A stretch of DNA of 64,000 nt from Candidatus Cloacimonadales bacterium (GTDB lineage: Bacteria > Cloacimonadota > Cloacimonadia > Cloacimonadales > JAFGVF01): assembly GCA_963663475.2 (NCBI GenBank), contig CAXXJV010000001.1:1728001-1792000 (forward strand). Direction: 5' to 3'. Both the position numbers and the translations under genes were made by a program. The notes under the pieces were generated by a model. That model was not told the origin of the DNA. It searched no databases and saw nothing but the letters and a program-made list of their open reading frames with translations. Shown here piece after piece: positions 1,837 through 27,438 of this stretch; position 1 is the stretch's first letter; every line of letters begins with the position of its first letter.

Positions 1837-2640
1837 ATGAAAAAAGTCATGCTTATCAGAATACTAATTCTCGCTTTCATAGCTCTTGCTAGCTTTACTG
1901 CTATAGCTTTAGAAAGATTTGGAGTTATCAATATTAACCCTCACTCTCTTTGTCCTTACTCACTTATTTGTTTTGGTATTCCAAGTCTAAGAGGATTCTT
2001 TTCAGCAAACCCTTTCTATATAGCTACTTTAATTGGACTGATAATCTTAGGCCTAAGTCCTTTCTTAGGAAGGATATTTTGTGGCTGGATATGTCCTATA
2101 GGTGCTATTCAAGAGGTCTTATATAGGCTAGGTAATGGCCAGTTAAAAGGAAGAAAGAAGTATCTAATAAGAGCTAAATGGGATAAGATTTTAAAGAAAC
2201 TAAAATATCTAGTATTAGTAATGAATATTATTCTAGCAACTTTACTCATTCAAGCTCTATATATGGCAGCTTGTCCAGTTATTGCTCTAGCTAATATTGC
2301 TACTTATTTGATAATATCTGCTATCATTCTTTTCGTTTTCTTGCTAGCCTCTCTTTTTATAGAGAGATTTGCTTGTCGCTATCTCTGTCCCTTTGGGGCA
2401 ATGATGAGTTTAATGCTTAAACTAGGAAATAAGCTAAAAATCCCAAGATTAATGCTTAAAATCAATAAAGAAATGTGTGTTAACTGCGAGTTATGTTCAT
2501 CAAACTGTCCTATGCAAATAGATGTTGATGAAAAATCAAAGGTTGCTGATAGTGAATGTATAATGTGTTTTAGATGTAAGGCAAAATGCCCTCGAAAGGG
2601 TATTGATTGTGAATTCTGTAATGATAAGGATAAGAAATGA
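1837..2640 (+). CDS. Membrane 4Fe-4S-binding protein (NapH/MauN/RdxA-like)
   Basis: About 5 TM segments, FCGWICPIG and ACRYLCPFG motifs, two C-terminal CxxCxxCxxxCP motifs. Confidence 0.85.
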
Positions 2641-2957
2641 AAAAATCAAAGATAATTATTATATTTATTGTTATTGCAATTTTTATTACATCCCTAATTG
2701 CTAAGAGAGATGTTGATTTAACTTCTTACAATATCAATCAATATAAGTGTATTGGTTGTCAGGCTTGTCTTGCTGCTTGTCCTGTTCAGGCTATTTCTTT
2801 AAGGAATGGTAAGGCGGTAATAGATCAATCCAAATGTATCCAATGTGGTATCTGTGTGAATGGTAATTACGCTGATTATCAAGGGTGTCCTGTGAAAGCA
2901 ATCAATCTTCCCATTGCAGAAGAAAGTTTATCAAATCAAACAGAAGTAGATCAATAA
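2637..2957 (+). CDS. 2x[4Fe-4S] ferredoxin with N-terminal signal peptide/anchor
   Basis: MKK plus hydrophobic stretch ending [16 protein letters not shown] and CIQCGIC-x10-CP; ATGA overlap with upstream gene. Confidence 0.85.
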
Positions 2958-7950: not shown

Positions 7951-7988
7951 TTGCTTGTAGTTATAATAATTTCACTTAGGAGGTGGAT

Positions 7989-10900: not shown

Positions 10901-11111
10901 TATACGTTATAGTTTAAAAGATAAGGGAAATGTAAGGATATCAATATACAATCTTAAAGGGCAAAAAATTCATCGGGATGAAATTATATCTCAAGAAAAA
11001 GGTTATCATAGTTATGTTTGGGATGGACGCAAACAAACTTCTGGTATCTACTTCGTAGAGTTTGTCAGTGGAAAATATAAAGAAGTTCGAAAAGTAACTT
11101 TAAGAAAATAA
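7989..11111 (+). CDS. Large secreted protein with Ig/cadherin-like, LamG-like and T9SS-type C-terminal sorting domains
   Basis: Signal peptide; FSIQAWVRW...WYLVTGVYDG (LamG); TLPVELSSF motif; YPNPFNP...IYNLKGQ...SGIYF CTD. ATG at 7989 fits the RBS (ORF track starts at 7983). Confidence 0.8.
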   Translation: MLMHNKKKCYFLILYLLIFNLSLFANLPSLDIEAEVEFSVNPERFIFNRTSTSSFTLENFTFNTNTTEYNYSTFYPADSLKITFPSAGNYQLETTFYGSISGNQTTFIQALVNGCICVPLIEAESSTGMDGNGNPNANTNSNVLTIVSDPGEANEKIYTLRFRRRADTEPTTIVISETAYEFSALVTGVSSIINGDNIASLQETNWSVNPITGTAYFNGNQLIPLSNGDVTVTATLENDNSISAVSETYTLSGISNWSPHLSSLELIDKYDVNINLSPQFTSNPNDAGDYTCSIVDEYSTLRLKLKAPVDCQVYIDDARVSSNGCSYLKIPPTDPINGPLYINYVIKVENSQGAKSYNLNIQREVKERLKYGRTSGNPPHLASAIGDVFGFNTVQTDKFSIQAWVRWTSETSEGQPWANIASQTYSSSGSNGTFWLQHNYNNTSFEFAINPTGTRRYVLSDASKVTIQRGVWYLVTGVYDGDRSPVRIYINDDDVSDRGVYTEGQVLAPDASAAYNFNVGKMPYGGRQFPGNIRNLRIWVEKALTATEIANDFPNTPLAGSSEDDSDFSWPLNEISNGSISNGNGSLNLSMVDVQEDDFVACCTNNRASGKALVHRPEKMDLSSATSESVILFQADGYSGNNFKFNILGPLENASKSMEVWDHNSNSWKTSDVISEGIAIDSELGNPTTGTYFWIPVRLATSTDGAGRYVDDDDDDDYDGNDTDAQGRTQYNTMLPLPTVAPMNDPFTVSGTLIGNEQHPLTEKYVILGYDAVEKGRLITGTSTLTASKDGKSNGSYTLVSDVPLYRVEVRTQDDILVTDVDNAEGWDETLENGGVINLDPITLPVELSSFTVSAISNGAKLQWVTQTESNISGYHVYRALVEDFSQSELVSPVIESNNSVQTQIYSYTDSDIMLNVDYYYWLKATEFSGEFRIYGPVSIFLEENEVTPEVPIFITGIESLYPNPFNPQVNIRYSLKDKGNVRISIYNLKGQKIHRDEIISQEKGYHSYVWDGRKQTSGIYFVEFVSGKYKEVRKVTLRK

Positions 11112-16975: not shown

Positions 16976-18448
16976 ATGAAAAATAAATTAAACTTAATCT
17001 TACTATTTGCTTTTGTAGCTTTGTTTGGACAAAGTCCAGACCAATTAGCCAGTAGATTTTATCAGATATCAGACCAATATGATGCAATAGGAGCTTCCTA
17101 CTGTTTAGTAACTGGAGATCAGATATACAACTATTCTTATGGTTGGAAAGATTATGATAGACAGCTCAGAATTGATAGTGATACAAAATTTAGAATAGCT
17201 TCTATCTCAAAAATTGTTACTGCTCTTGCCGCTATGAAGCTTGTTGAGAATAATCTTGTAGATTTAGATAGTGATGTTTCTTCTTATTTGGGATTTACTC
17301 TAAGAAATCCAAACTTCCCAGATAATCAAATAACCCTAAGACACCTGCTTACACATACTTCTGGCTTAAGAGATAGTAATGCTTACACAAATTTCATAAG
17401 TCAATCTTACTCTCAAACCCCCCCTGCTATATCTCAACTGCTAATGACAAGTGGTAGCTTTTATAATTCTTCTATTTGGACAAGTTATTATGAACCTGGC
17501 CAAGCAAGTGGTTGGGATTACTCTAACCTGGCTGCTGGACTTGTAGCAACTTTAGTTGAAAATGTTGCTCAAGAACATTTCTCTACTTATGTTCAAGATA
17601 ATTTCTTGAATCCTTTGGGGATTGAAGCCTGTTGGAATAACTTTTCTGCCTTAAGTGATATAAATGATTTAGCTGTCTTATACAGATACGTAGGTGGTCA
17701 GCCTAGTCCTCAAGCAGATAATTATCAAGGTGTCTATCCTGAAGAGATTGATTTAAATCAAATACCTTTTGGCTGGAATGGTTTAATCTATGCCCCTCAA
17801 GGTGGATTAAGGATTAGTACTAGTGACCTAGCTAAAATATTCATGATGATGCGGGATAGAGGGTCTTATAATGGGCAAGTTATCCTAGAAGAAGCTACAA
17901 TCAATCAGATGGAAGACTTAAATTGGACAGGTTCAGGTTTAGGAGGTTTCTTTACTCAAATGGGCTTGCAACTTCAAAGAACTTATGACCTTTTCCCTAA
18001 TGAACTATTCTTTGGTCATGCAGGGGAAGCTTATGGTTTAATTAGTGATGCTTATTATAACCTAGAAAGAGATATTATCTTAGTCTTTCTTACTAATGGT
18101 GGAAATTATTCTTATGGAAACCTATTTTATGATTATGAAGAATCTATCTTCTCAGCTACTAAAGAATGGTTGGATGCTGTTTCTAATAATAACCAAGTTA
18201 TTGCTAATGAGGATGTTAATATTTACCCTAACATTATTAATTCTCTTGATCAGAAAATCTCAGTTTCTACTAAGGATAAGCTTTCTTATATGGCTCTATA
18301 TAACTTAAAAGGACAGTTAATTAAGAGATTTACTAATCCCAAAAAGGAAATTTCTCTTAAGCAAACAAGGTTGGGAAGTGGTTTTTATATTCTTAAAATT
18401 GCTAGTGGGAATAAAATATTCACCAGGAAACTGATAATAAAAAAATAA
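16976..18448 (+). CDS. Serine hydrolase (beta-lactamase/PBP-like) with T9SS-type CTD
   Basis: ASISK (SxxK), LLTHTSG, YSN and GHAG motifs; IYPN...YNLKGQ...SGFYILK tail. Confidence 0.88.
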   Translation: MKNKLNLILLFAFVALFGQSPDQLASRFYQISDQYDAIGASYCLVTGDQIYNYSYGWKDYDRQLRIDSDTKFRIASISKIVTALAAMKLVENNLVDLDSDVSSYLGFTLRNPNFPDNQITLRHLLTHTSGLRDSNAYTNFISQSYSQTPPAISQLLMTSGSFYNSSIWTSYYEPGQASGWDYSNLAAGLVATLVENVAQEHFSTYVQDNFLNPLGIEACWNNFSALSDINDLAVLYRYVGGQPSPQADNYQGVYPEEIDLNQIPFGWNGLIYAPQGGLRISTSDLAKIFMMMRDRGSYNGQVILEEATINQMEDLNWTGSGLGGFFTQMGLQLQRTYDLFPNELFFGHAGEAYGLISDAYYNLERDIILVFLTNGGNYSYGNLFYDYEESIFSATKEWLDAVSNNNQVIANEDVNIYPNIINSLDQKISVSTKDKLSYMALYNLKGQLIKRFTNPKKEISLKQTRLGSGFYILKIASGNKIFTRKLIIKK

Positions 18449-18524
18449 GATTTGTAAATTTGTTATAGGTGATTAACTTATTTAAAATAAATATTTTATC
18501 CTAATTAGAAAAACTGGAGTTGAG

Positions 18525-20987
18525 ATGAAAAAGTTAATCATTAAAATAAATGGTATGTCCTGTGCTTCTTGTTCTGCCACTATTGAAAGGGCATTAAAGA
18601 AAGTTGAAGGTCTGATTGATGTAAATGTTAACTATCCTGCAGGTAAGGCTTTTGTTACTTATGAACCTGAAAGAATTGATGTTTCTTATATTGAAGAATT
18701 AATTACCAAGGTAGGTTATGATGTTGTTGAATCTTATGATCCTGAAGCAAATCAAACTAGTGTAAATACCATCAAATTAAACGTGACAGGAATGTCCTGT
18801 GCCTCTTGCTCTTCAGCTGTAGAAAGAACACTAAAAAAGACTTGTGGGGTTAAGGCAGTTAATGTAAATTTAGCTTCTGAAATTGCAACAATCCAAATAG
18901 ATTCAAATCTTACAAATGAAAAAGCTCTAAAAGAAGCGGTTATCAATGCAGGCTATGGTATTCAAACAGAGAAGGCTCTAGATAATGAAGCAGAAAACTT
19001 GCAAGCTGCTAAAAAGAGGATGATAATAATTTGGGCTGTTACTCTTCCCATTATGGTTTGGATGATTCCTATGATGCTTTTCGGAATAATGTGGCCTGAT
19101 CATATAACTCACAATATCGGAGTACTTCTTCTCGCCTCTATAGGCCTGTTTACTGTTGGGATGAAGACTTTTAAATCAGCTTTTAAATCTCTAATTCATG
19201 CTTCTGCAAATATGGATGTTTTGATTACTCTAGGAACAGGTGCTGCTTATATAACAGGATTTCTTCACTTCTTTATGGATATTGCTTCTTTTGCAGGAAT
19301 CTCAGCAATGATAATGGCTTTTCACCTCACTGGAAGATATATTGAAGTAAAAGCAAAAGGACGAGCTTCTCAAGCAATTAAGAAATTATTAGAGCTGGGG
19401 GCTAAAACTGCTCTAATTGAAGAGGATGGTCAAGAAAAAGAAGTTCCTGTAGAATCATTAGAGTTAGGCCAAATTATGCTAGTAAAACCAGGATCAAAGA
19501 TACCTACTGATGGACAAATAGTAGAGGGGGCAACAAGTATTGATGAATCAATGGCTACTGGAGAATCTTTTCCAGTTAAAAAAGTTATTGGAGATAATGT
19601 CTTAGGTGCTACAATTAATCAGAATGGTTTTATCAAAGTTAGGGTTGAGAAAATAGGCAAAGAGACTTTTTTATCACAAATTATCAAAATGGTTGAAGAG
19701 GCTCAAGGTTCAAAAGTACCTATTCAAGAGTTTGCTGATAAAGTGACTGCTTTTTTCGTTCCTATCGTGATTTTACTAGCTCTTATAGCTTTTGCCAGCT
19801 GGTTAATTTTTCCTGATACTCTACAAGCAATCAGTCTTTGGGCCTCCCAATATCTTGCTTGGGTTAATCCTCAAGCAAATTCACTAACTCAGGCTATTTT
19901 TGCCACTGTTGCAGTACTTGTTATCGCTTGTCCATGTGCCTTAGGCCTAGCAACTCCAACAGCTCTGATGGTTGGTTCTGGTATGGGAGCTGAAAATGGT
20001 ATTCTGATCAGAAATGGAGCTGCTATCCAGACTATGAAAGATGTTGCTGTAATAGTGTTTGATAAAACAGGTACTATTACCAAAGGCAAACCTGAAGTAA
20101 CTGATATTTATTCTAATTCATTAAGTGAAACACAAGTTATGCAATTAGCTGCTAGCTTAGAAAGTAGGTCAGAACATCCCCTAGCAAGAGCTATGATAAA
20201 TTATTGTAAGACAAAAAATATCAGTTTTGAACAAGCAAAAGCTTTTGCATCCCATTCAGGATTAGGTTTGAGTGGACAAGTTAAAGATAAGAAAATCTTT
20301 TTAGGAAATAGGAAACTTCTAGAAGAACATGCTATTGATTATCAGAATTATGCTGATAGAATTGATAAACTTGAGAAAGAAGCTAAAACGGTAATTTTGC
20401 TAGCTGATGAGAAAGAGATGCTAGCTTTAATAGCAGTTGCAGATGCCCTTAAAGAAGATTCAGGAATGGCAATTGCTAGATTACATAAACTGGGATTTAA
20501 AACAGCTATGATTTCTGGCGATAATGATAAGACTGCTCAGGCTATAGCTAAAAAGGTAGGTATAGATTTTGTAGCCTCACAAGTTTTACCAGACCAAAAA
20601 GTAGAAGAGATTAAAAAATTTCAAGAAAAATATGGTTTGGTAGCAATGGTTGGAGATGGTATAAACGATGCACCAGCTTTAAAACAAGCTAATGTTGGAA
20701 TAGCAATTGGAACTGGTACAGATATTGCTATTGAATCATCTGATATTACCTTAGTTAAAGGTTCCTTAATGAGTGTTGTGCAAGCTATTAAACTATCTCA
20801 AGAGACTTTTAAAAAGATTAAACAAAACCTTTTCTGGGCCTTTGCCTATAATCTTATAGCTATTCCTCTAGCTTTCACTGGTATGTTACACCCTGTTATT
20901 GCTGAAATTGCTATGGCTACAAGTTCAATTACCGTTGTAACAAACTCAAATAGACTTAGAAAGAGAAATCTAAATCCGAATTGGTAA
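18525..20987 (+). CDS. copA: Copper-translocating P1B-type ATPase
   Basis: Two GMSCASC HMA domains; TGES, CPC, DKTGT, EHP and GDGIND motifs. Confidence 0.95.
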   Translation: MKKLIIKINGMSCASCSATIERALKKVEGLIDVNVNYPAGKAFVTYEPERIDVSYIEELITKVGYDVVESYDPEANQTSVNTIKLNVTGMSCASCSSAVERTLKKTCGVKAVNVNLASEIATIQIDSNLTNEKALKEAVINAGYGIQTEKALDNEAENLQAAKKRMIIIWAVTLPIMVWMIPMMLFGIMWPDHITHNIGVLLLASIGLFTVGMKTFKSAFKSLIHASANMDVLITLGTGAAYITGFLHFFMDIASFAGISAMIMAFHLTGRYIEVKAKGRASQAIKKLLELGAKTALIEEDGQEKEVPVESLELGQIMLVKPGSKIPTDGQIVEGATSIDESMATGESFPVKKVIGDNVLGATINQNGFIKVRVEKIGKETFLSQIIKMVEEAQGSKVPIQEFADKVTAFFVPIVILLALIAFASWLIFPDTLQAISLWASQYLAWVNPQANSLTQAIFATVAVLVIACPCALGLATPTALMVGSGMGAENGILIRNGAAIQTMKDVAVIVFDKTGTITKGKPEVTDIYSNSLSETQVMQLAASLESRSEHPLARAMINYCKTKNISFEQAKAFASHSGLGLSGQVKDKKIFLGNRKLLEEHAIDYQNYADRIDKLEKEAKTVILLADEKEMLALIAVADALKEDSGMAIARLHKLGFKTAMISGDNDKTAQAIAKKVGIDFVASQVLPDQKVEEIKKFQEKYGLVAMVGDGINDAPALKQANVGIAIGTGTDIAIESSDITLVKGSLMSVVQAIKLSQETFKKIKQNLFWAFAYNLIAIPLAFTGMLHPVIAEIAMATSSITVVTNSNRLRKRNLNPNW

Positions 20988-21058
20988 TAGAAATATAGCC
21001 TAAAATTCAGAAAAATATAATTTTATGGATTTTCCTAACTTATTCTACACTATCTTGG

Positions 21059-21226
21059 TTAAACCCAAATAATGTAGCAGACCTTTGTGAATAGCAGAAT
21101 CTTTTTTGCAAAAGTAAGCTACATTATTTTCAGGAATATATATTATATGCCTTCAAATTCCGTAACTTATTTTGCTAAAAGAATCTAGCACTCTTCATCA
21201 AAGTTCTACTGCACCATTCTGGTTAA
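21059..21226 (+). repeat. Family A copy (preceded by the right end of another copy at ~21043-21062)
   Basis: ttaaacccaaataatgtagcagacctttgtgaa...aaagttctactgcaccattctggttaa. Confidence 0.85.
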
Positions 21227-21419
21227 AAGAATTAATTTTTCTAAATCCTAGTTAAATAATGGGAGATAATGTTAAATAATATCTAGCAAAGTTATAGATA
21301 ATATTGTCATAGTTTGCAATTACTATTTTTAGGGATAGGTTTGTTAAGACTAACTTAATATCTATTGACAAAATTAAGTCCTCCAGTGATTTGTAGATAA
21401 AAAATCAAAGGGAGAAGGG

Positions 21420-21953
21420 ATGAAAAATAAAAAGAGAAATTTAATAATTTTGTTACTTTTGCTAGTTACAGTAACAATGTTAATTTCAGTAGAAGTCAAA
21501 CAACATTGTGGAAAGCATTTTCCTAAAGCAGACCAGGATTCTTTAAGGGTAACTATTACTGGTATTGTGCAATTAAATGAGAACCAGCTCCAGTTAGTTG
21601 AAGATTCAACAAAGGTAGCTTATAATTTAATTATTCCTGAGAATATGGAAAATGAGATGGATAAAATCCAAATGGGCAAGAGATATAATTTTTCTGGTAA
21701 AAATTCTAGGGGTGGCTTAGTGGTTGAGAAGTATAGTCTATGTCAAGGTGATCATAAGGCAGGTAGCCATCATGTAGATCAAGCTAGATGTATAGGTTGT
21801 AGACTTTGTATTAAGCAGTGTCCTGAGGGGGCAATCACAATGGTAAAAGGCAAAGCAGTAATCGATCAAGACAAGTGCATTGATTGTGGTATTTGTGTTG
21901 ATGGTAACGGTAAATTCAAAGGTTGCCCAGTAAAGGCTATAGAAAAGAAATAG
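21420..21953 (+). CDS. Exported protein with small beta domain and C-terminal 2x[4Fe-4S] ferredoxin
   Basis: Signal peptide; CIGCRLCIKQCP and CIDCGIC-x9-CP; paralog of 2637-2957. Confidence 0.85.
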   Translation: MKNKKRNLIILLLLLVTVTMLISVEVKQHCGKHFPKADQDSLRVTITGIVQLNENQLQLVEDSTKVAYNLIIPENMENEMDKIQMGKRYNFSGKNSRGGLVVEKYSLCQGDHKAGSHHVDQARCIGCRLCIKQCPEGAITMVKGKAVIDQDKCIDCGICVDGNGKFKGCPVKAIEKK

Positions 21954-21962
21954 GAGTCATAA

Positions 21963-22499
21963 ATGAAGAAATCAATAATTTTTATTCTTGTTTTAACAAG
22001 TATTATTTTCACTTTATTTGCAGTTTATCAGATTAACTCTATTAGGTGTAATAATTGTGGAAGGTGTTTGAGTACATGTGATGAGGATGCGATCTATTAT
22101 GATGCTAGTCTTCATAGTTATCAAATTGATCCTGATCTTTGTGAGGATTGTGGTGATTGTGCAGATAGGTGCCCTCGTAATGCAATATCTCAAGTTGCAG
22201 TTTCAAATGACTTAGGTGATGTAAATCCTGTTAGTTTAGAAGTTAGTGTTTTTCCTAATCCAACAGCTTCTAGAGCAGTATTTAAAGTAATTTCTCAAGA
22301 CAGAATAAGTTCAAGAGATTTAGTGATATATAATATTAAGGGTCAAAAAGTTAAAGAATTAAAGTTTGACGAGAAGACTAATTCTGTAGGTTGGGATTTA
22401 ACAGATGACTTAGGAAATAGGGTTCCATCAGGTAATTATTTATTTAAATATTCAACAAGTGATAAAGAAATATCAAAACTTTTAACAGTTATAAAATAG
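21963..22499 (+). CDS. 2x[4Fe-4S] ferredoxin with signal peptide and T9SS/FlgD-type C-terminal sorting domain
   Basis: TLFA signal end; CNNCGRCLSTC and CEDCGDCADRCP; VFPNP...IYNIKGQKV...WDLTDDLGNRVPSGNY. Confidence 0.85.
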   Translation: MKKSIIFILVLTSIIFTLFAVYQINSIRCNNCGRCLSTCDEDAIYYDASLHSYQIDPDLCEDCGDCADRCPRNAISQVAVSNDLGDVNPVSLEVSVFPNPTASRAVFKVISQDRISSRDLVIYNIKGQKVKELKFDEKTNSVGWDLTDDLGNRVPSGNYLFKYSTSDKEISKLLTVIK

Positions 22500-22506
22500 G
22501 ATAATC

Positions 22507-22761
22507 ATGAAAAAAAAGCTATTAACTATTTTAGTAATAGCAGTCATATTTTTAGGGTTCCTCTTTGCTTCTGAAGTAGTAGAGAACCCTTTTGTTCGTA
22601 AATATGATTGCGTTGGTTGTGGAGATTGTCTTGATGCTTGCCCAGTTAATGCAATAGAACTTGTAAATGGGAAAGCTGTAATCGATAATGAGAAGTGTAT
22701 TAACTGCAATATTTGTGTTGGGACCTGTACTTATGATGCCATTGAAGGGGGGCAGCAATGA
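22507..22761 (+). CDS. 2x[4Fe-4S] ferredoxin with signal peptide
   Basis: FLFA signal end; CVGCGDCLDACP and CINCNICVGTC. Confidence 0.88.
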   Translation: MKKKLLTILVIAVIFLGFLFASEVVENPFVRKYDCVGCGDCLDACPVNAIELVNGKAVIDNEKCINCNICVGTCTYDAIEGGQQ

Positions 22762-23003
22762 AGAGAGTAATTATTATATTAGTAGCACTTATTATCTTGT
22801 TTACTTTTATTGCCTGTAAGAAACCAACTGAGAAAGAATATGGAATTGATAAATCATCATGTAATTCTTGTGGTGAATGTATTGCTGTCTGCCCAAGTGA
22901 TGCTATAGAGTATAATCTTGAAGGTAAGGCAGTTATTGATCAAAGTAAGTGTACCAGCTGTGGTGAGTGTATAACAGTCTGTCCTCAAGGAGCTATTTAC
23001 TAA
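22758..23003 (+). CDS. 2x[4Fe-4S] ferredoxin lipoprotein
   Basis: FIAC lipobox followed by KK; CNSCGECIAVCP and CTSCGECITVCP. Confidence 0.88.
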   Translation: MKRVIIILVALIILFTFIACKKPTEKEYGIDKSSCNSCGECIAVCPSDAIEYNLEGKAVIDQSKCTSCGECITVCPQGAIY

Positions 23004-24205
23004 TGAAAAAGCTAGTATTAATCTCATTTTTAATATGTATATGTCTATGTTTAAATGCTTCTTATTGGAATCAGACCAGGTTTTCATTCTATAAATCGCA
23101 AGATACTGAAGTATATGGAGCAGAGAATAACTTTGTTTCTGAAATATTACTTAATAAATTAAATATTCAAGTTCAAATGAATTCTTTGCTTTCGGAGGAA
23201 GGCTTTGATGAACCAAATTCATATGTAACTAATGAAATAAGAAGTCTAGCTACCTACACTTATAATCCTCAATCAAAACTTCTTTTAGGGTATAATATTG
23301 ATTATTATGACTATGATAAAACCCAGAGCTCATTTATCTATAATTGGATTAATCTGCCTGTTCAGCCCCTAGTTAAGAATTATCTCTACTTGATTTCAAA
23401 AAATGAATGGGCTAACTTTACTTTACTAGCTGGTCTGAGAGGAAGAGCAACAGGTATTGATTATAAAATTGGTATACCTGATGCAATAAATTCAGCTCAA
23501 GCAGAACATTATGATGAGTTTTATAAAGATATAGCTTTAGCCTACCAACTTAGTAATAATATTGCTATCTACGCTGTCTATGAAAACAAAACTTTCTATA
23601 GTTCGAATACAAATTTTAATGATCCAGGCAGAGATTTTGATTACACCCATTATGGGGGAGGGGTTAATTTTACTTCTAGAGATTTCTTAGGTGGTAAAAT
23701 ATCCGAAGATTTTCAATACTTAAGAAAAGATTCTGAGCAATATGCAGATTATCAAAGACATAACTTTATTAATAAACTAAGATATAGTTATAATATCACA
23801 CCTACTATAAGCTCATTTGTTTCATATATATCAAAGTTCTCTTATGATGATAAGGAAAAAGAGTTCTATCGTTTAGCTAACATGGTCAGAGTTCAAGCAC
23901 GTTATAACCTAGCTAATTCAAATTATAAGGCATTTCTTATAGCTGGAACTAGTTTAAGTCTAGAAAACTTAAATAGAATTTATTTTGCTTATGCAAAATA
24001 TCCACTAAGTAAGTCATTTTCTCTTTCTCTAGAAGATAGGTATAGTCATAATGTATATAATACTATAATTGCATCTTTAGATTATCAGTTAAATTCTAAC
24101 TTCATGGTTTATTTAGAGAACAGTAATTCACAGTCTTTTAGCAATATAAATACTTACGATTTTAAAAACACACTTACAATAGGTACAAGGATGCTTTTTA
24201 GATGA
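23003..24205 (+). CDS. Probable outer-membrane beta-barrel protein
   Basis: TAATG-coupled ATG at 23003; signal peptide ending CLNA; Tyr/Phe-rich alternating strands; C-terminal TLTIGTRMLFR. Confidence 0.7.
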   Translation: MKKLVLISFLICICLCLNASYWNQTRFSFYKSQDTEVYGAENNFVSEILLNKLNIQVQMNSLLSEEGFDEPNSYVTNEIRSLATYTYNPQSKLLLGYNIDYYDYDKTQSSFIYNWINLPVQPLVKNYLYLISKNEWANFTLLAGLRGRATGIDYKIGIPDAINSAQAEHYDEFYKDIALAYQLSNNIAIYAVYENKTFYSSNTNFNDPGRDFDYTHYGGGVNFTSRDFLGGKISEDFQYLRKDSEQYADYQRHNFINKLRYSYNITPTISSFVSYISKFSYDDKEKEFYRLANMVRVQARYNLANSNYKAFLIAGTSLSLENLNRIYFAYAKYPLSKSFSLSLEDRYSHNVYNTIIASLDYQLNSNFMVYLENSNSQSFSNINTYDFKNTLTIGTRMLFR

Positions 24206-25185
24206 TTACCACATTAATTGAAGGTTTTACTCTTGGCTTTTCAACAGGCACTATATGCCTTGTCTCTTGTACTCCTATCTATCTTCCTTACCTTATATCA
24301 GAGAATAGGTCATTTAGTAAAAATATCTGGAAGGTTCTTGAAATATCACTAGGTAGATTTTTCTCTTATATCGTCTTTGGACTCTTAGCAGGCTGGATAG
24401 GTTCTAATATTGCTACTATTAATCGAGACCTCTTTACTGGGATAGCATATAGTCTGCTATCCCTATTTTTAATTCTTAGTGTAATAAGAACTAATAAGAA
24501 AGAAAAGAAGTGTCACATTCCTGCTTTTGCCAAGATAACCTCATCGGCATTTCTACTTGGTGTTTTTACAGGAATCAACTTCTGTCCTTCCTTCTTGATT
24601 GCACTATCTAAAGCAGTTGACTTAGCAGGTCCCATCTCCGGAGCTCTACTATTTTTAGGTTTCTTCTTCGGAACTTCTATTTTCTTAATACCTTTGGCTT
24701 TCTCTGGCTTTTTAGCTTATATAAAAAACTTAAAGTATGTTGCCCAATTAGCCTCTATAGCTATAGCTGTCTGGTTCCTTTTCTCAGCAGGACTTAAGTT
24801 TTATGATGTCTATAAAAGTACTCAAGCCTACTATCTTGATCCTTCAGCAAGCGATTTTCCAATGACACTAATTATTCAAGAAGATAATCAAGCATATTTT
24901 GCTGAATTAGCAGACTCTCTCTTCAATCTCAAAGCAGAGAACTTCGCCCTGCTTACTATTAAATCAGACTCTCTTAAACTGCAAGAAGTGAATAATAGTA
25001 ACTTGATTTATCTTATAGATGCTGATCTAGTGAAAAATCTAGACCATGAAAAACTATCTCAGATACATTATTATGAAGTTGAAGCAGGCTATCCTGTTCC
25101 AGATATTATTCATTTTCTAAAAAATTCGGTTATGAAGCTGAATAGAGATGATAAAATTCACTTCTCTTTTAGCAGAAAACACTAA
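24202..25185 (+). CDS. DsbD/CcdA-like (DsbD_2/TauE-related) membrane protein with soluble C-terminal domain
   Basis: About 6 TMs with GxxCLVSC, GRFFSY and NFCP motifs. Confidence 0.75.
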   Translation: MITTLIEGFTLGFSTGTICLVSCTPIYLPYLISENRSFSKNIWKVLEISLGRFFSYIVFGLLAGWIGSNIATINRDLFTGIAYSLLSLFLILSVIRTNKKEKKCHIPAFAKITSSAFLLGVFTGINFCPSFLIALSKAVDLAGPISGALLFLGFFFGTSIFLIPLAFSGFLAYIKNLKYVAQLASIAIAVWFLFSAGLKFYDVYKSTQAYYLDPSASDFPMTLIIQEDNQAYFAELADSLFNLKAENFALLTIKSDSLKLQEVNNSNLIYLIDADLVKNLDHEKLSQIHYYEVEAGYPVPDIIHFLKNSVMKLNRDDKIHFSFSRKH

Positions 25186-25320
25186 TTTTACAAACATGAA
25201 TAATGACTAATTTAAAGCAAGTAAAGTAGAATATGAAAAAAAAATGCTTTTATAAGTTATTATTAATTAATAAAAAGCAGATTTATTCATAATAAAAATG
25301 AAAATAAATTAAAAAAACTA

Positions 25321-25349
25321 TTGACAGAAAAACCCCTTTATAGGATATT
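25321..25349 (+). promoter_or_regulatory. Promoter of the tRNA cluster
   Basis: A-rich UP-like tract, then TTGACA-17 bp-GATATT, 20 bp before the first tRNA. Confidence 0.55.
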
Positions 25350-25368
25350 GCTAATACATATTTCGAAC

Positions 25369-25454
25369 GGAGAATTAGTCCTAATTGGTAAGGCAGCGGT
25401 CTTGAAAACCGCCGGGCTCTGCCCTTGGGGGTTCGAGTCCCTCATTCTCCGCCA
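25369..25454 (+). tRNA. tRNA-Ser(TGA)
   Basis: Cloverleaf; gcggt-cttgaaa-accgc anticodon arm; long variable arm; GTTCGAG; CCA end. Confidence 0.95.
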
Positions 25455-25463
25455 TTCTTGAAC

Positions 25464-25554
25464 GGAGAGGTGGCCGAGCGGCTTAAGGCGTGCGCCTGCT
25501 AAGCGTATGTAGGCTAATCCCCTACCGAGGGTTCAAATCCCTCCTTCTCCGCCA
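25464..25554 (+). tRNA. tRNA-Ser(GCT)
   Basis: ctgctaa anticodon loop; long variable arm; GTTCAAA; CCA end. Confidence 0.95.
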
Positions 25555-25584
25555 TTAAAAACATAAAAATTTATAAAATAGTGT

Positions 25585-25659
25585 TGGGCTGTCGTCAAGT
25601 GGTAAGACACATGGTTTTGGTCCATGCATTCCCGGGTTCGAATCCTGGCAGCCCAGCCA
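25585..25659 (+). tRNA. tRNA-Gln(TTG)
   Basis: catgg-ttttggt-ccatg anticodon arm; GTTCGAA; CCA end. Confidence 0.95.
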
Positions 25660-25692
25660 TCACTATTTTATAAATTTTTTTTCTGTTTATAC

Positions 25693-25766
25693 TGGGGTAT
25701 AGTCTAATGGTAGGACAGCAGGTTCTGGCTCTGTGTGTCGGGGTTCGATTCCCTGTACCCCAGCCA
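25693..25766 (+). tRNA. tRNA-Gln(CTG)
   Basis: ttctggc anticodon loop; GTTCGAT; CCA end. Confidence 0.93.
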
Positions 25767-25789
25767 TAAACTCTCTTATTATTTGACCT

Positions 25790-25987
25790 AGATATTACCC
25801 TGTAAGGGTTTAATAAAATGATAAATAATGTATTATCATAAATCTATGGTATATATGATGTTATTTAACCCTTTCAGGGTTAGGCTTTGTTTTACATCCA
25901 GTACCCGGGGTTGCATTCCCTTCAGGAATTTACCCCAGGCTAAACTATTTATCCCCTTTGGGGATTTAAGACTTATCCCTTCAGGAT
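25790..25987 (+). repeat. Family B REP-like composite repeat (centre and right half)
   Basis: Near-identical to 32649-32860; accctgtaagggt, accctttcagggt and cccggggttgc...ccccaggct hairpins. Confidence 0.85.
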
Positions 25988-26086
25988 TTAGGACTTCTAA
26001 TCATCAAAACATACTATTAACAGTATATTCTTACTTGTAACATACTGTCATTCAATTAATATGCTATACTATAAGTCTCTTTTTAT

Positions 26087-26316
26087 CCACCAAACTTGAA
26101 CTTGAGCCAAAGAATGGCTCAAGTTCAAGTTTGGTGGGAATAATATAGGAAAATGAGAATATTTCATTACTATATTGATTCATCAAAAATCCCTGAAAGG
26201 GATAAAATAATTTAGCCCAGGGTAAGATGCTGAAAGTATCGCAAGCCTGGGTAATGATGGCTAGCCCAAAGATATTACCCTGTAAGGGTTTAATAAAATG
26301 ATAAATAATGTATTAT
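26087..26316 (+). repeat. 23 bp perfect hairpin plus family B left half and centre
   Basis: ccaccaaacttgaacttgagcca-aagaa-tggctcaagttcaagtttggtgg; 26116-26316 is near-identical to 32494-32695. Confidence 0.85.
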
Positions 26317-26481
26317 CCTAAATAGTGCAATAGATCTTTGAGAATAGCAGAATATTATTTTGCGAAAATAACTTACATAATTCTTCCGAACATATATATT
26401 ATATGCGTCAGAATTCTGCAAGCTATTTTGCTAAAAGAATCTGCACTCTTCACTAAAGCTCTACTACACTATCTGGGTTAA
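26313..26481 (+). repeat. Family A copy abutting the centre of family B
   Basis: ttatcctaaatagtgcaatagatctttgagaa...ctctactacactatctgggttaa. Confidence 0.85.
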
Positions 26482-26484
26482 AGC

Positions 26485-27438
26485 TTATTTCACATGTTTA
26501 GGTACATATATATTGTCTATATTAGCTTGGTATTCTATTAGCATATTCTCATAAGAAGTCATAACAGATTTCATCTGATTAATCCCACTTTCAGATAGTT
26601 GGATTCTTTCAGGCTCATAGAACCATTTAAGATCAATAGTAATTTTTCCATTAGCTAGCATTTTTTTTAGAACTTCTAGGTTTATTTTAGACTCTTCATC
26701 AAGCAGGTTATAAGAAATACTTCTACTTACAGAGATATTATAATCACTAACAATTAGGGAAGATTTATCATAGAAGATCGAAATATCTGAACTAGTGAAT
26801 TTAATTGTTTCTAGCTCTGGTTCAAGTTGAGATGGATAAAAATATAAATAGATTTGGGGAGCTTTGTAGCCATCAATTTTTACTGCTAGTTTTAAGGGGG
26901 ATGATTTAGAGTAGTAAATTATTGCTGATCCTTCTGATCTTTGATCCGTGATTTCTTTCAAGGATTGTATCTGAGAAAAGTAGCTTTTAAGATGGCTATC
27001 ATTTTCGCTTTTAACTCTTTGTAAGTAGGTAGCTTTAGATTTTTCTACTTGAGGTCTGAAGGCTGAAATATCATAGTTTTTGTTAACAGTATTAAATTTA
27101 AAATCAAATAAGTGTAATTGGTCTTTAACTGCTAAAGAATCAAGAGATTTCAAAGCTTGCAAAGTTTTATTTTCAATATCTTTTTCTAATTCACGCATTA
27201 GAGTAATATCTTCATCTCTTAACTTATCGCCTTTAGCTTCTTCAATGCTGGTTAAGGCTGCTTTATAAAATTCATTATTAAAATCTTCTATGGCAGTTTT
27301 TAAATTTCTATTTCTTACATCACTTTGCTGATATTTAACTTGTGCAGGTTTATTATCAGACTTCTTTTCTCCACAGGCCATACAGAATATTGAGAAGATT
27401 ACTAGGATAAGTGTCAGTTGGATAAAATTCTTCTTCAT
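26485..27438 (-). CDS. Hypothetical lipoprotein
   Basis: CMAC lipobox-like signal, AGGAG RBS; no family recognised. Confidence 0.7.
   Translation of the reverse strand: MKKNFIQLTLILVIFSIFCMACGEKKSDNKPAQVKYQQSDVRNRNLKTAIEDFNNEFYKAALTSIEEAKGDKLRDEDITLMRELEKDIENKTLQALKSLDSLAVKDQLHLFDFKFNTVNKNYDISAFRPQVEKSKATYLQRVKSENDSHLKSYFSQIQSLKEITDQRSEGSAIIYYSKSSPLKLAVKIDGYKAPQIYLYFYPSQLEPELETIKFTSSDISIFYDKSSLIVSDYNISVSRSISYNLLDEESKINLEVLKKMLANGKITIDLKWFYEPERIQLSESGINQMKSVMTSYENMLIEYQANIDNIYVPKHVK

Follow-up and report, generated by a model that had tools for sequence, protein, structure and literature searches.

Gene organization

The cluster studied here belongs to a near-complete Cloacimonadota genome and lies in a stretch of 64,000 nucleotides, called the window below, whose numbering is used throughout. 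It consists of six tightly coupled + strand genes (21420-25185), for which all the ORFs of the initial annotation were found in place (Table 1). Direct reading of the junctions gave gaps of 9 nt between FdA and FdB and of 7 nt between FdB and FdC, then an ATGA overlap between FdC and FdD, a TAATG junction between FdD and the barrel gene, and a second ATGA overlap between the barrel and DsbD_2 genes. The barrel start was set at ATG 23003 rather than at the upstream GTG 22967, and this choice yields a signal-like N-terminus. The cluster is preceded, at a distance of 432 nt, by the gene of a CopA-type P-type ATPase that carries two HMA domains. Elsewhere in the window, the gene of a NapH-like membrane protein and that of a fifth ferredoxin, FdE, also overlap by ATGA.

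Table 1. Genes of the cluster and of the NapH-like pair, in window coordinates
Feature	Position	Strand	Description
FdA	21420..21953	+	177 aa; ORF, Fer4, signal-like N-terminus
FdB	21963..22499	+	178 aa; Fer4, N-terminal signal, T9SS type A C-terminal sorting domain
FdC	22507..22761	+	84 aa; Fer4, signal peptide, without lipobox
FdD	22758..23003	+	81 aa; lipoprotein ferredoxin, lipobox FIAC
Barrel protein (predicted)	23003..24205	+	400 aa; family-less, 20-strand model
DsbD_2-family membrane protein	24202..25185	+	Six helices, PF13386
NapH-like polytopic membrane Fe-S protein	1837..2640	+	Fer4_5 70.8 bits and C-terminal Fer4
FdE	2637..2957	+	106 aa; predicted exported ferredoxin, Fer4 E 5e-13, signal-like N-terminus

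Ferredoxins with export signals

Each of the four small proteins matched the Pfam family Fer4 (E = 7.8e-13, 2.1e-11, 4e-13 and 1.3e-17 for FdA, FdB, FdC and FdD). Judged from their sequences, these are ferredoxin-domain proteins of the 2x[4Fe-4S] type with a predicted Fe-S cofactor, as first proposed from their Cys motifs. Export-type N-termini were present on all four, the export and SPase I substrate calls being based on a hydrophobicity and charge heuristic together with conservation. Just 6 of the 30 ORFs of the genome with a ferredoxin Cys motif have a signal-like N-terminus, namely the four of the cluster and the two at 1837-2957; as all of them fall in these two operons, the export signals here exceed chance. 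The lipobox, the T9SS domain and these N-termini together support the prediction that the ferredoxin domains lie outside the cytoplasm.

FdA is composed of a signal-like N-terminus, an N-domain of about 90 aa and unknown fold, for which an atlas search gave no relative (best score 0.76), and, at the C-terminus, a ferredoxin domain of the 2x[4Fe-4S] type, to which that of FdE is similar. Its family is present in 26 of 64 loci, and CxxDxxC variants were seen among its orthologues. FdA also contains His-rich stretches. The C-terminal sorting domain announced for one ferredoxin was recovered in FdB with scores that exceed the two curated cut-offs (PF18962, 28.9 bits vs 27; TIGR04183, 33.4 vs 23). 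PF18962 was found on 16/16 FdB homologues, and this C-terminal domain of FdB matches 111 stop-to-stop segments of its own genome, including that of FdB itself; the genome encodes the T9SS translocon SprA. FdB is thus predicted to be at the cell surface or secreted.

FdC is the second ORF 5' of the barrel gene in 47 loci and its eight cluster Cys are all invariant across 37/37 orthologues; we predict it to be a periplasmic core component. In FdD, the lipobox Cys is invariant in 41/41 orthologues, which bears out the lipobox first read from this single sequence. The same 41 sequences share seven of its eight cluster Cys without exception and keep the eighth to at least 90%, with Asp as its sole replacement (in L034, L051 and L060). 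Asp as a cluster ligand has a precedent in the Pyrococcus ferredoxin. In the one Chitinispirillaceae genome examined, which has TatC, the FdC and FdD orthologues carry twin-arginine-like N-termini, and this fits the expectation for exported cofactor-bearing proteins.

Other genomes encode large lipoproteins that combine ferredoxin domains with four FN3 stretches. In the two that were run against Pfam (L024:2081-4618 and L022:2572-4779), Fer4 was found near both ends. Position +3 behind the lipid Cys is Asp in 22 of the 25 large FN3-ferredoxin ORFs.

Barrel protein and its predicted complex with FdD

The fifth protein matched no Pfam or NCBIfam family. Its family is small, a search of 1.84 billion representatives having given 96 clusters at E<=1e-3, and 3 of 14 matches had a name, in each case 'hypothetical protein', the other 11 being nameless. 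The AlphaFold 2 model has 20 strands (pLDDT 88.1, pTM 0.76) and predicts an outer-membrane beta-barrel without plug domain, in line with the barrel initially suspected. The best fold matches are plug-holding 22-strand barrels of TonB transporters, among them BtuB (Z 17.7, 330 aligned, rmsd 4.3), Cir (Z 17.2) and FusA (Z 15.0). MtrB (6r2q_B, Z 13.2, 367 aligned, rmsd 6.2) and LptDE (5iva_A, Z 12.3) are also fold neighbours.

A multimer model of barrel and ferredoxin had been suggested, and FdD was the ferredoxin modelled. Three runs gave ipSAE values of 0.77, 0.74 and 0.71 against 0.01 for the best control, this score being the model's own confidence, obtained with our own alignments and riding ligands that differ from the calibration of the tool. 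The ipSAE mark is reached by 58/80 solved complexes and by 2/110 mismatched pairs. At least 80% of contacts agree between runs, and the pLDDT of the partner is at least 82. The model places FdD inside the lumen of the barrel. Its predicted contacts reach 15 of the 20 strands, on the face that is polar (mean hydropathy -1.02, vs +0.70 for the other face), and include five invariant or near-invariant charged barrel residues (R148, K196, R260, R296, E321).

Membrane proteins, distribution and genome context

The sixth protein, described at the outset as DsbD/CcdA-like, matched DsbD_2 (PF13386) with 68.1 bits for a cut-off of 24.9. C19, C23, C104 and C128 are invariant in 45 sequences, and the AlphaFold 2 model (pLDDT 84.5) shows six helices and a C-terminal alpha/beta domain; neither sequence nor fold searches returned a solved relative. 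A thioredoxin gene lies 3' of the DsbD_2 gene in 2 loci.

Of 202 Cloacimonadota genomes, 97 have the barrel, with a patchy distribution (32 of 60 genera). The DsbD_2 protein occurs in 84 of these 202 genomes, in 63 of them with the barrel. It is absent from 34 of the 97 barrel-positive genomes, which makes it an unlikely inner-membrane wire. Upstream sequence of at least 3 kb was available for 52 loci, of which 43 combined the barrel with at least two signal-bearing ferredoxin ORFs; the two small ferredoxins stand immediately 5' of the barrel in 8/8 examined loci from barrel-positive genomes without DsbD_2. The invariant core is FdC, FdD and the barrel; FdA, FdB, the large FN3-ferredoxin lipoproteins, the NapH-like protein and the DsbD_2 protein often accompany it but are facultative. 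Thus, conservation of the neighbourhood holds for the three core genes but not for the whole six-gene set.

A NapH-like homologue flanks 22 of 52 loci. Its gene, unlinked to the cluster in this genome, is intra-operonic in others (L023:2693-3481 lies within the operon of that locus). Since it shares the window, with its own exported ferredoxin, and is an operon member elsewhere, the NapH-like protein is a better candidate than DsbD_2 for the inner-membrane step. A quinol oxidase role of NapH type is unlikely, as MenA and MqnA/D had no match in the genome.

TatC was not found in the source genome, nor in any of 41 relatives. Therefore, any Fe-S cluster would need to be inserted after Sec export, a point that the initial annotation did not raise. 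No cytochrome c assembly or maturation family was detected in the genome, and none of its 7363 stop-to-stop segments has three or more CxxCH motifs. Among the neighbours of the cluster, no gene names a terminal acceptor or donor.

Comparison with known systems

The closest parallels are the porin-cytochrome conduits (MtrCAB of Shewanella, Pcc of Geobacter, MtoAB/PioAB), which share a barrel sheathing a small redox protein (predicted here), a surface-targeted redox protein, periplasmic carriers and encoding in an operon. These use haem, whereas 0/6 proteins of the cluster have CxxCH and [4Fe-4S] cofactors are predicted; also, the surface component here would take the T9SS or lipoprotein route. 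MtrB, although a fold neighbour, has no sequence relation to our barrel and has 26 strands rather than 20. LptD-LptE likewise has a lipoprotein inside an outer-membrane barrel, comparable to the small lipoprotein predicted here in the lumen of the large barrel of the adjacent gene. No sequence relation was found, however; LptE has no redox function, and the cargo of LptDE is lipopolysaccharide. TonB-dependent transporters, including FusA, resemble the barrel in fold. Their plug, about the size of two small ferredoxins, normally fills the lumen, whereas the barrel described here has neither plug nor N-terminal extension, 20 strands instead of 22, and no sequence similarity to them.

The pair at 1837-2957, a membrane protein with Fer4_5 and a predicted exported ferredoxin, recalls NapG/NapH and MauM/MauN; in other genomes this pair is part of the operon. 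NapG is exported through Tat and NapH takes electrons from quinol, whereas here the searches gave no TatC, no MenA/Mqn and no twin-arginine motif, and no nitrate reductase or methylamine genes lie nearby. Finally, the DsbD_2 protein is similar to CcdA/DsbD in its family match, six helices, invariant Cys in helix 1 and helix 4 Cys-Pro motif. It differs in an additional invariant CxxxC and loop Cys, in a Cys-free C-terminal alpha/beta domain replacing the thioredoxin domain, and in having no cytochrome c maturation to serve.

Proposed mechanism and alternative explanations

We propose that the cluster encodes a porin-ferredoxin, cytochrome-free electron conduit across the outer membrane, and we put the chances of this reading at roughly even. 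It builds on the gene content, targeting signals, conservation and barrel fold observed, and on the predicted ferredoxin-in-barrel complex. FdD, and probably FdC, would fill the lumen of the 20-strand barrel, so that as many as four [4Fe-4S] clusters would be lined up across the outer membrane. Outside, a ferredoxin domain would be displayed by FdB via T9SS or, in other genomes, by the large FN3-repeat lipoproteins; inside, periplasmic FdA and FdE would make the link to the NapH-like protein. From this arrangement we infer an electron flow, its direction and a partner, which may be a mineral, humics or a syntrophic methanogen.

As no Tat system was found, the ferredoxins would be exported unfolded by the Sec or lipoprotein pathway and would receive their clusters only after export, with ambient Fe(II) and sulfide as a plausible source. 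DsbD_2 might provide the reducing power that protects their numerous Cys from oxidation, much as CcdA does during cytochrome c maturation. Holo-protein formation is purely conjectural, since TatC was not found and we know of no pathway for Fe-S cluster insertion outside the cytoplasm. Further points speak against the conduit: DsbD_2 and the NapH-like flanks, the candidates for the inner-membrane link, are missing as often as noted above; the Fer4 ends of the two scanned large lipoproteins are four FN3 stretches apart, too far for a rigid wire; the distribution is patchy; and the neighbouring genes point to no terminal acceptor or donor. The ferredoxin-for-cytochrome wire first suggested is supported in part, by the predicted placement, the barrel, the co-conservation, the ferredoxin predicted inside the barrel and the absence of c-type cytochromes, but hardly with DsbD_2 as its inner-membrane part.

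An unlikely alternative is that the barrel is a solute channel gated or plugged by FdD, an Fe-S lipoprotein acting as plug or as oxygen or redox sensor, with the other exported ferredoxins and DsbD_2 devoted to maintaining the redox state of the periplasm and not to electron export. The predicted position of FdD in the lumen, the resemblance to plug-containing transporters and the minimal three-gene modules without linked inner-membrane or surface component suit it, and [4Fe-4S] clusters are classic O2 sensors. Yet a gate has no use for the surface ferredoxins (FdB or FN3 lipoproteins) and NapH-like protein that recur in the operons, and the invariant partners of the barrel are two ferredoxins, not one. 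We regard as improbable a scavenging of iron or iron-sulfur, in which exported or secreted apo-ferredoxins would take up Fe and sulfide, or FeS, in a sulfidic environment and come back via the barrel to deliver the iron, with DsbD_2 as inner-membrane importer. After Sec export the protein would be outside the cell in its apo form, the wider superfamily of DsbD_2 includes metal transporters, and the barrel resembles TonB-dependent iron transporters such as the ferredoxin importer FusA. Import of ferredoxin for iron is described in PMC6042079. A Fur-family gene and FeoB lie 3' of the barrel in L023, but they adjoin the cluster in 0/72 other loci searched; moreover, the barrel has no plug domain, no TonB-box region was seen in it, the NapH-like linkage points to redox chemistry, and the lipid anchor of FdD speaks against a shuttling carrier.

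Binding of Cu/Zn or disulfide formation by the exported domains, for metal buffering or detoxification beside CopA, also has a low probability in our view. The adjacent ATPase, the His-rich stretches of FdA, and the lack of any Tat found or known periplasmic Fe-S assembly would agree with it. Nevertheless, CopA is adjacent in only 4/72 loci, and by DsbD_2 identity (76-90%) these four are the nearest to the window among 64 loci; the CxxCxxCxxxC spacing of the eight Cys is invariant over two phyla, with Asp as sole replacement seen, and two orthologues bear twin-arginine-like signals where TatC exists. Uncleaved anchors holding the domains in the cytoplasm, as an ordinary membrane-associated redox module, appear very improbable. 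Signal prediction was heuristic only and clostridial-type ferredoxins are normally cytoplasmic, but the invariant lipobox Cys, the positive charges N-terminal to the hydrophobic segment, and the co-occurrence and predicted complex with an outer-membrane barrel all argue otherwise, and a T9SS sorting domain and FN3-repeat fusions make sense only outside the cytoplasm. Anchors, non-Fe-S binding, a fifth protein other than a barrel, or a gene set without co-conservation had been named beforehand as contrary to the electron conduit, and none of these was encountered outright.

Full-text literature searches found no description of such a system. If the porin-ferredoxin conduit is real, it would represent a previously undescribed electron wiring across the envelope in cytochrome-free anaerobes.

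Organization of the gene cluster

Features located in the window
Feature	Position	Strand	Basis and remarks
Six-ORF cluster	21420-25185	+	ORF calling
FdA, exported ferredoxin	21420-21953	+	
FdB, exported ferredoxin	21963-22499	+	
FdC, exported ferredoxin	22507-22761	+	
FdD, exported ferredoxin	22758-23003	+	
Barrel (400 aa)	23003-24205	+	
DsbD_2 protein	24202-25185	+	
CopA-type P-type ATPase, two N-terminal HMA domains	18525-20987		Pfam; 432-nt gap before cluster
NapH-like protein	1837-2640		Fer4_5, 70.8 bits (cut-off 22); C-terminal Fer4_10, E 1.1e-07
FdE, exported ferredoxin	2637-2957		ATGA overlap with NapH-like gene
Laminin_G_3 protein (1042 aa)	7983-11111		T9SS cargo; Por_Secre_tail sorting domain
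Beta-lactamase-fold protein (490 aa)	16976-18448		T9SS cargo; Por_Secre_tail sorting domain
Stretch without ORF of at least 90 aa (1.3 kb)	25186-26484		
ORF of 70 aa	25828-26040		
Short hairpin	25864-25884		terminator scan
Short hairpin	26189-26203		terminator scan
Short hairpin	26277-26289		terminator scan

The initial annotation had described six tightly coupled genes on the same strand, and ORF calling bore this out: the successive junctions between the four small ferredoxins (FdA to FdD), the barrel gene and the gene of the DsbD_2 membrane protein were 9 nt, 7 nt, ATGA, TAATG and ATGA. A promoter and terminator scan of positions 18000-27000 gave results no better than those of shuffled sequences. 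The CopA-type ATPase gene found before the cluster adjoined it at no more than 4 of the 72 loci. These come from close relatives (76-90% identity of the DsbD_2 protein), and the linkage is probably incidental. Metal homeostasis was not retained as a conserved neighbour theme, FeoB and Fur having been found at a single locus (L023, from Cloacimonadota) and CopA at these four. Downstream of the cluster, the stretch almost devoid of ORFs contains three short hairpins with a common CCCT..AGGG core, a set that could represent a small repeat or an RNA.

The source genome consists of two contigs and is 99.24% complete. Related records bear the name Candidatus Cloacimonadales or Cloacimonadota in their titles. 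The sequencing runs listed as containing the sequence included no RNA; they were DNA runs or runs of unspecified type, obtained from two coded organisms and from metagenomes of microbial mats, wastewater and bioreactors. Mat, wastewater and bioreactor samples may offer anoxic, sulfidic niches.

Ferredoxins with predicted export signals

The four ferredoxins were all recognized by Pfam Fer4 (E = 7.8e-13 for FdA, 2.1e-11 for FdB, 4e-13 for FdC and 1.3e-17 for FdD), and the two CxxCxxCxxxC(P) motifs that characterize bacterial-type 2x[4Fe-4S] ferredoxins were present in the cluster ferredoxins. All 8 cluster cysteines of FdC were invariant among 37 orthologues. In FdD, the lipobox cysteine and seven cluster cysteines were invariant among 41 orthologues, the eighth being replaced by Asp in three of them; the same CxxDxxC variant occurred in FdA orthologues. 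Ligation of a cluster by Asp is known from an archaeal ferredoxin. In FdA, the N-terminal domain (residues ~24-112) matched no Pfam family, and an atlas search gave nothing usable, its best score being 0.76, with unnamed clusters; this domain is rich in Cys and His close to its beginning, and the linker before the ferredoxin domain is rich in His.

The N-termini of FdA to FdD show a short basic stretch followed by a hydrophobic one. The ferredoxin Cys motif was found in 30 ORFs genome-wide, and such an N-terminus in only 6 of these, namely FdA to FdD and the two ORFs at positions 1837-2957. Signal-like N-termini are not a general habit of the ferredoxins of this genome, and the proposal of four ferredoxins with export-type starts was upheld. 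The two more specific targeting claims also held. FdD is a predicted lipoprotein by virtue of a lipobox (FIAC) after its hydrophobic signal, the Cys being kept in 41 of 41 orthologues. The C-terminal sorting domain of FdB passed both curated cut-offs (PF18962, 28.9 bits for a cut-off of 27; TIGR04183, 33.4 bits for a cut-off of 23), and PF18962 was recovered in 16 of 16 FdB homologues. This protein also has an N-terminal Sec signal, and the genome encodes the T9SS translocon SprA (SprA_N, 62.2 bits), so that FdB has the features of a type A T9SS cargo. Its C-terminal domain was related to at least 111 stop-to-stop segments of its own genome, its own included, and by its signal FdB is thus an ordinary T9SS cargo. 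Two further cargo proteins of this kind lie in the window (Table).

Other genomes encode lipoproteins of 735-845 aa in which four FN3 stretches are combined with ferredoxin domains lying close to each end. Of 25 large ORFs with ferredoxin domains, 22 had Asp at +3 relative to the lipid cysteine, which we take to resemble the acidic signals that direct Bacteroidota lipoproteins to the cell surface. It appears that a ferredoxin domain can be brought to the surface in either of two ways, by T9SS or on a surface lipoprotein.

The barrel and its predicted complex with FdD

The fifth protein matched no family in Pfam or NCBIfam. From an alignment of 38 sequences, AlphaFold2 modelled 20 beta strands preceded by a signal helix (pLDDT 88.1, pTM 0.76). 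The 22-strand barrels of TonB-dependent transporters ranked first in an all-against-all structural search (BtuB, Z 17.7, 330 residues aligned, rmsd 4.3; Cir, Z 17.2), followed by fold neighbours such as the ferredoxin importer FusA (Z 15.0) and MtrB (Z 13.2), in agreement with Foldseek. On the basis of this model and of its likeness to outer-membrane barrels, the product of the fifth gene is indeed a probable beta-barrel, as had been suggested. It lacks the plug domain present in BtuB, Cir and FusA. By sequence, its profile matches in the PDB were at chance level and no relative was retained there. The family is small and unnamed: the 14 close matches comprised 3 annotated as "hypothetical protein" and 11 without a name, and a search of 1.84 billion representatives gave 96 clusters at E<=1e-3 and 70 at E<=1e-30.

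Multimer modelling of the barrel with the ferredoxins, which had been suggested as a check, was carried out for FdD, each protein having its own alignment, with barrel residues 18-400, mature FdD (residues 20-81) and two [4Fe-4S] clusters. The barrel-FdD ipSAE values were 0.77, 0.74 and 0.71 (median 0.74), as compared with 0.01 for the best of three controls; 58 of 80 solved complexes attain the ipSAE mark, as do 2 of 110 mismatched pairs, in a calibration that differs from our runs by their user alignments and riding ligands. The runs agreed in at least 80% of contacts, with a partner pLDDT of at least 82. The 60 contact residues of the barrel were distributed on 15 of the 20 strands; within strands they belong to the polar face, whose mean hydropathy is -1.02 as against +0.70 for the other face. 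This places FdD inside the lumen in the model. R148, K196, R260, R296 and E321, which are all five charged residues of the barrel in invariant or nearly invariant columns, are all predicted FdD contacts. To judge by its contacts and by typical barrel topology, FdD seems to lie towards the long-loop end. Since we know of no solved ferredoxin-in-barrel complex, it seems unlikely that the model was reproducing a structure it already knew.

DsbD_2 and NapH-like membrane proteins

The sixth protein was assigned to Pfam DsbD_2 (68.1 bits, cut-off 24.9). Its model (pLDDT 84.5) comprises six long helices and, over residues 210-327, an alpha/beta domain at the C-terminus, and four cysteines were invariant in 45 sequences: C19 and C23 in helix 1, C104 in a basic loop, and C128 in a Cys-Pro motif of helix 4. 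The expected DsbD-like, Cys-containing membrane protein was therefore recovered. By the positive-inside rule, the basic loops would be cytoplasmic and the C-terminal domain periplasmic. The Foldseek and VIA-align matches listed for the whole model included no CcdA or DsbD chain, the best being unrelated carriers (Z 8.4). The C-terminal domain showed a weak likeness to CheY/flavodoxin-like alpha/beta folds (Z 6-7.6), and profile matches to PDB sequences were again at chance level.

In two loci (L077, L080), a 115-aa thioredoxin (WCGPC, no signal) is encoded ~90 nt downstream of DsbD_2, an arrangement that fits a thiol-disulfide relay; thioredoxin linkage was seen at these 2 loci only. CcdA serves cytochrome c maturation, for which no assembly family was found in this genome, and by analogy we propose that DsbD_2 might supply reducing equivalents for the cysteines, eight or nine per protein, of the exported apo-ferredoxins. 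This role is the weakest link of the scheme, because the gene is facultative and no structural relative was found. Longer DsbD_2 homologues (~454 aa) were also observed at three loci (L047, L048, L081) with no ferredoxin or barrel genes within 8 kb upstream; the family thus also exists outside this system.

The NapH-like protein, encoded in a second, separate operon of the window, combines the Fer4_5 membrane domain and the C-terminal ferredoxin domain that define the NapH family. Its gene overlaps that of FdE, a protein similar to FdA in its ferredoxin domain. A homologue was found in the operon flank in 22 of 52 loci, and at L023:2693-9478 the NapH-like gene lies inside the operon, where the barrel is followed by no DsbD_2 and where genes for a Fur-family regulator and FeoB come next. 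The NapH-like protein is a better candidate than DsbD_2 for the inner-membrane redox step.

Tat, cytochromes and quinones

TatC (PF00902) was found neither in the genome itself nor in any of 41 relatives of the order, 35 of them of high quality, whereas the same search recovered it in 11 of 14 control genomes. RR was absent from the first 15 residues of all six cluster proteins. These proteins were consequently not considered as Tat substrates, as they show no twin-arginine signal and no TatC was found. Among the Fibrobacterota-type genomes that hold the cluster, TatC was present in 4 of 5. In one such TatC-positive genome, a Chitinispirillaceae record, the FdC and FdD orthologues (L084:6238-6749) start, on inferred start codons, with twin-arginine-like motifs. 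This single case is a hint of what is expected for exported proteins loaded with their cofactor, and FdC- and FdD-type proteins may use Tat in one lineage and Sec in the Tat-less Cloacimonadota. As no Tat was found in the latter, we infer that clusters are necessarily inserted after export. Chemical reconstitution of apo-ferredoxins is possible from Fe(II), sulfide and a thiol.

The cytochrome c assembly family PF01578 had 0 matches in the 99.24% complete genome, none of its 7363 stop-to-stop segments contained three or more CxxCH motifs, and this motif was absent from all six cluster proteins. Quinol is the electron donor expected of the NapH family; of the quinone routes, those covered by MenA (TIGR00751) and MqnA/D (PF02621) were searched for in the genome and not found.

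Conservation of the core

Among 202 genomes of Cloacimonadota with a completeness of 80% or more, 97 gave a match to the barrel profile; for those of high quality the figures were 73 of 151. The distribution was patchy, over 32 of 60 genera. Searching with the DsbD_2 alignment gave 64 loci, most of them from Cloacimonadota, with a few records titled Fibrobacterota, Chitinivibrionales, Chitinispirillaceae, Delongbacteria or Armatimonadota. Where at least 3 kb of upstream sequence was available (52 loci), the barrel gene lay immediately upstream in 43, accompanied by two or more ferredoxin ORFs with a signal, and no ferredoxin ORF was found in 4. DsbD_2 itself was detected in 84 of the 202 genomes; 63 genomes had both genes, 34 the barrel only, 21 DsbD_2 only and 84 neither. 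As these counts include kin that are not independent, no weight is given to P values. In all 8 barrel-only loci that were fetched, two small signal-bearing ferredoxin ORFs directly preceded the barrel, and the flanks contained neither DsbD_2 nor a NapH-like gene.

These loci define an invariant core made of an FdC-type protein, an FdD-type protein and the barrel. FdA (26 loci), FdB-type T9SS ferredoxins, the large FN3-ferredoxin lipoproteins, the NapH-like gene and DsbD_2 are facultative. Thus, of the gene set that the initial annotation expected to be co-conserved, two ferredoxins and the barrel stood, and FdA, FdB and DsbD_2 did not. As the core consists of only three small genes, it is directly testable.

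Proposed function and alternative explanations

The nearest working likeness of the cluster appears to be MtrCAB/Pcc. Like these porin-cytochrome conduits, it encodes a large outer-membrane barrel beside redox proteins, and a redox protein (FdD) is placed in the barrel lumen, here by prediction. In contrast, Mtr/Pcc conduits depend on multihaem CxxCH cytochromes and a maturation system, neither of which was found in the cluster or the genome. That the cluster is a haem-free analogue of such a conduit has about an even chance. Electrons from cytoplasmic metabolism would pass, probably via the NapH-like protein, to the periplasmic ferredoxins FdA and FdE; they would cross the outer membrane via FdD, presumably together with FdC, held in the barrel, and would leave through a surface ferredoxin domain, either FdB or, in other genomes, the FN3 lipoproteins.

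Other readings of the same genes are less favoured. A channel gated by the redox state of its ferredoxin is rather unlikely, and the use of the barrel for scavenging iron or FeS quite unlikely; under both, a ferredoxin plugged into a barrel would still be undescribed. We give a similarly low probability to a chemistry based on other metals or on disulfides, under which the replacement of a cluster cysteine by Asp in FdD and FdA orthologues would be an odd coincidence. It is highly improbable that the proteins are membrane anchors facing the cytoplasm, as several independent sequence signals (the invariant lipobox, the T9SS domain, the FN3 lipoproteins and Asp at +3) point to an extracytoplasmic location.

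Extending the conduit reading to the whole group is possible, with somewhat less than even probability: in Cloacimonadota and some Fibrobacterota, stacked [4Fe-4S] ferredoxins in a dedicated barrel would form an outer-membrane wire, matured extracytoplasmically after Sec export without Tat, and would provide fermenters and syntrophs that lack cytochromes and quinones with a low-potential path for electron transfer to the exterior or between species. The components of the cluster are not homologous to known conduit parts, from which they differ in cofactor class and export logic.

To our knowledge, all outer-membrane electron conduits described so far use multihaem cytochromes, and the exported Fe-S proteins known to us travel folded via Tat. 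A full-text literature search, covering sources other than subscription journals, found no description of exported ferredoxins associated with a barrel, of T9SS ferredoxins or of Tat-independent periplasmic Fe-S proteins. Folded transport through Tat is presented in two articles as the general rule for cofactor-bearing proteins (PMC3623810; PMC3712460).

The cluster joins Sec-, lipoprotein- and T9SS-targeted ferredoxins to a dedicated barrel, in a phylum where Tat was not found and in a genome where c-type cytochromes were not found. If these ferredoxins are functional, the installation of Fe-S clusters would be possible outside the cytoplasm, and there would be a second way of moving electrons across the envelope, one without haem. 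Abundant syntrophs of anaerobic digesters and sediments could then engage in the reduction of minerals or in direct interspecies electron transfer; current gene-marker surveys, being keyed to cytochromes, would miss them.
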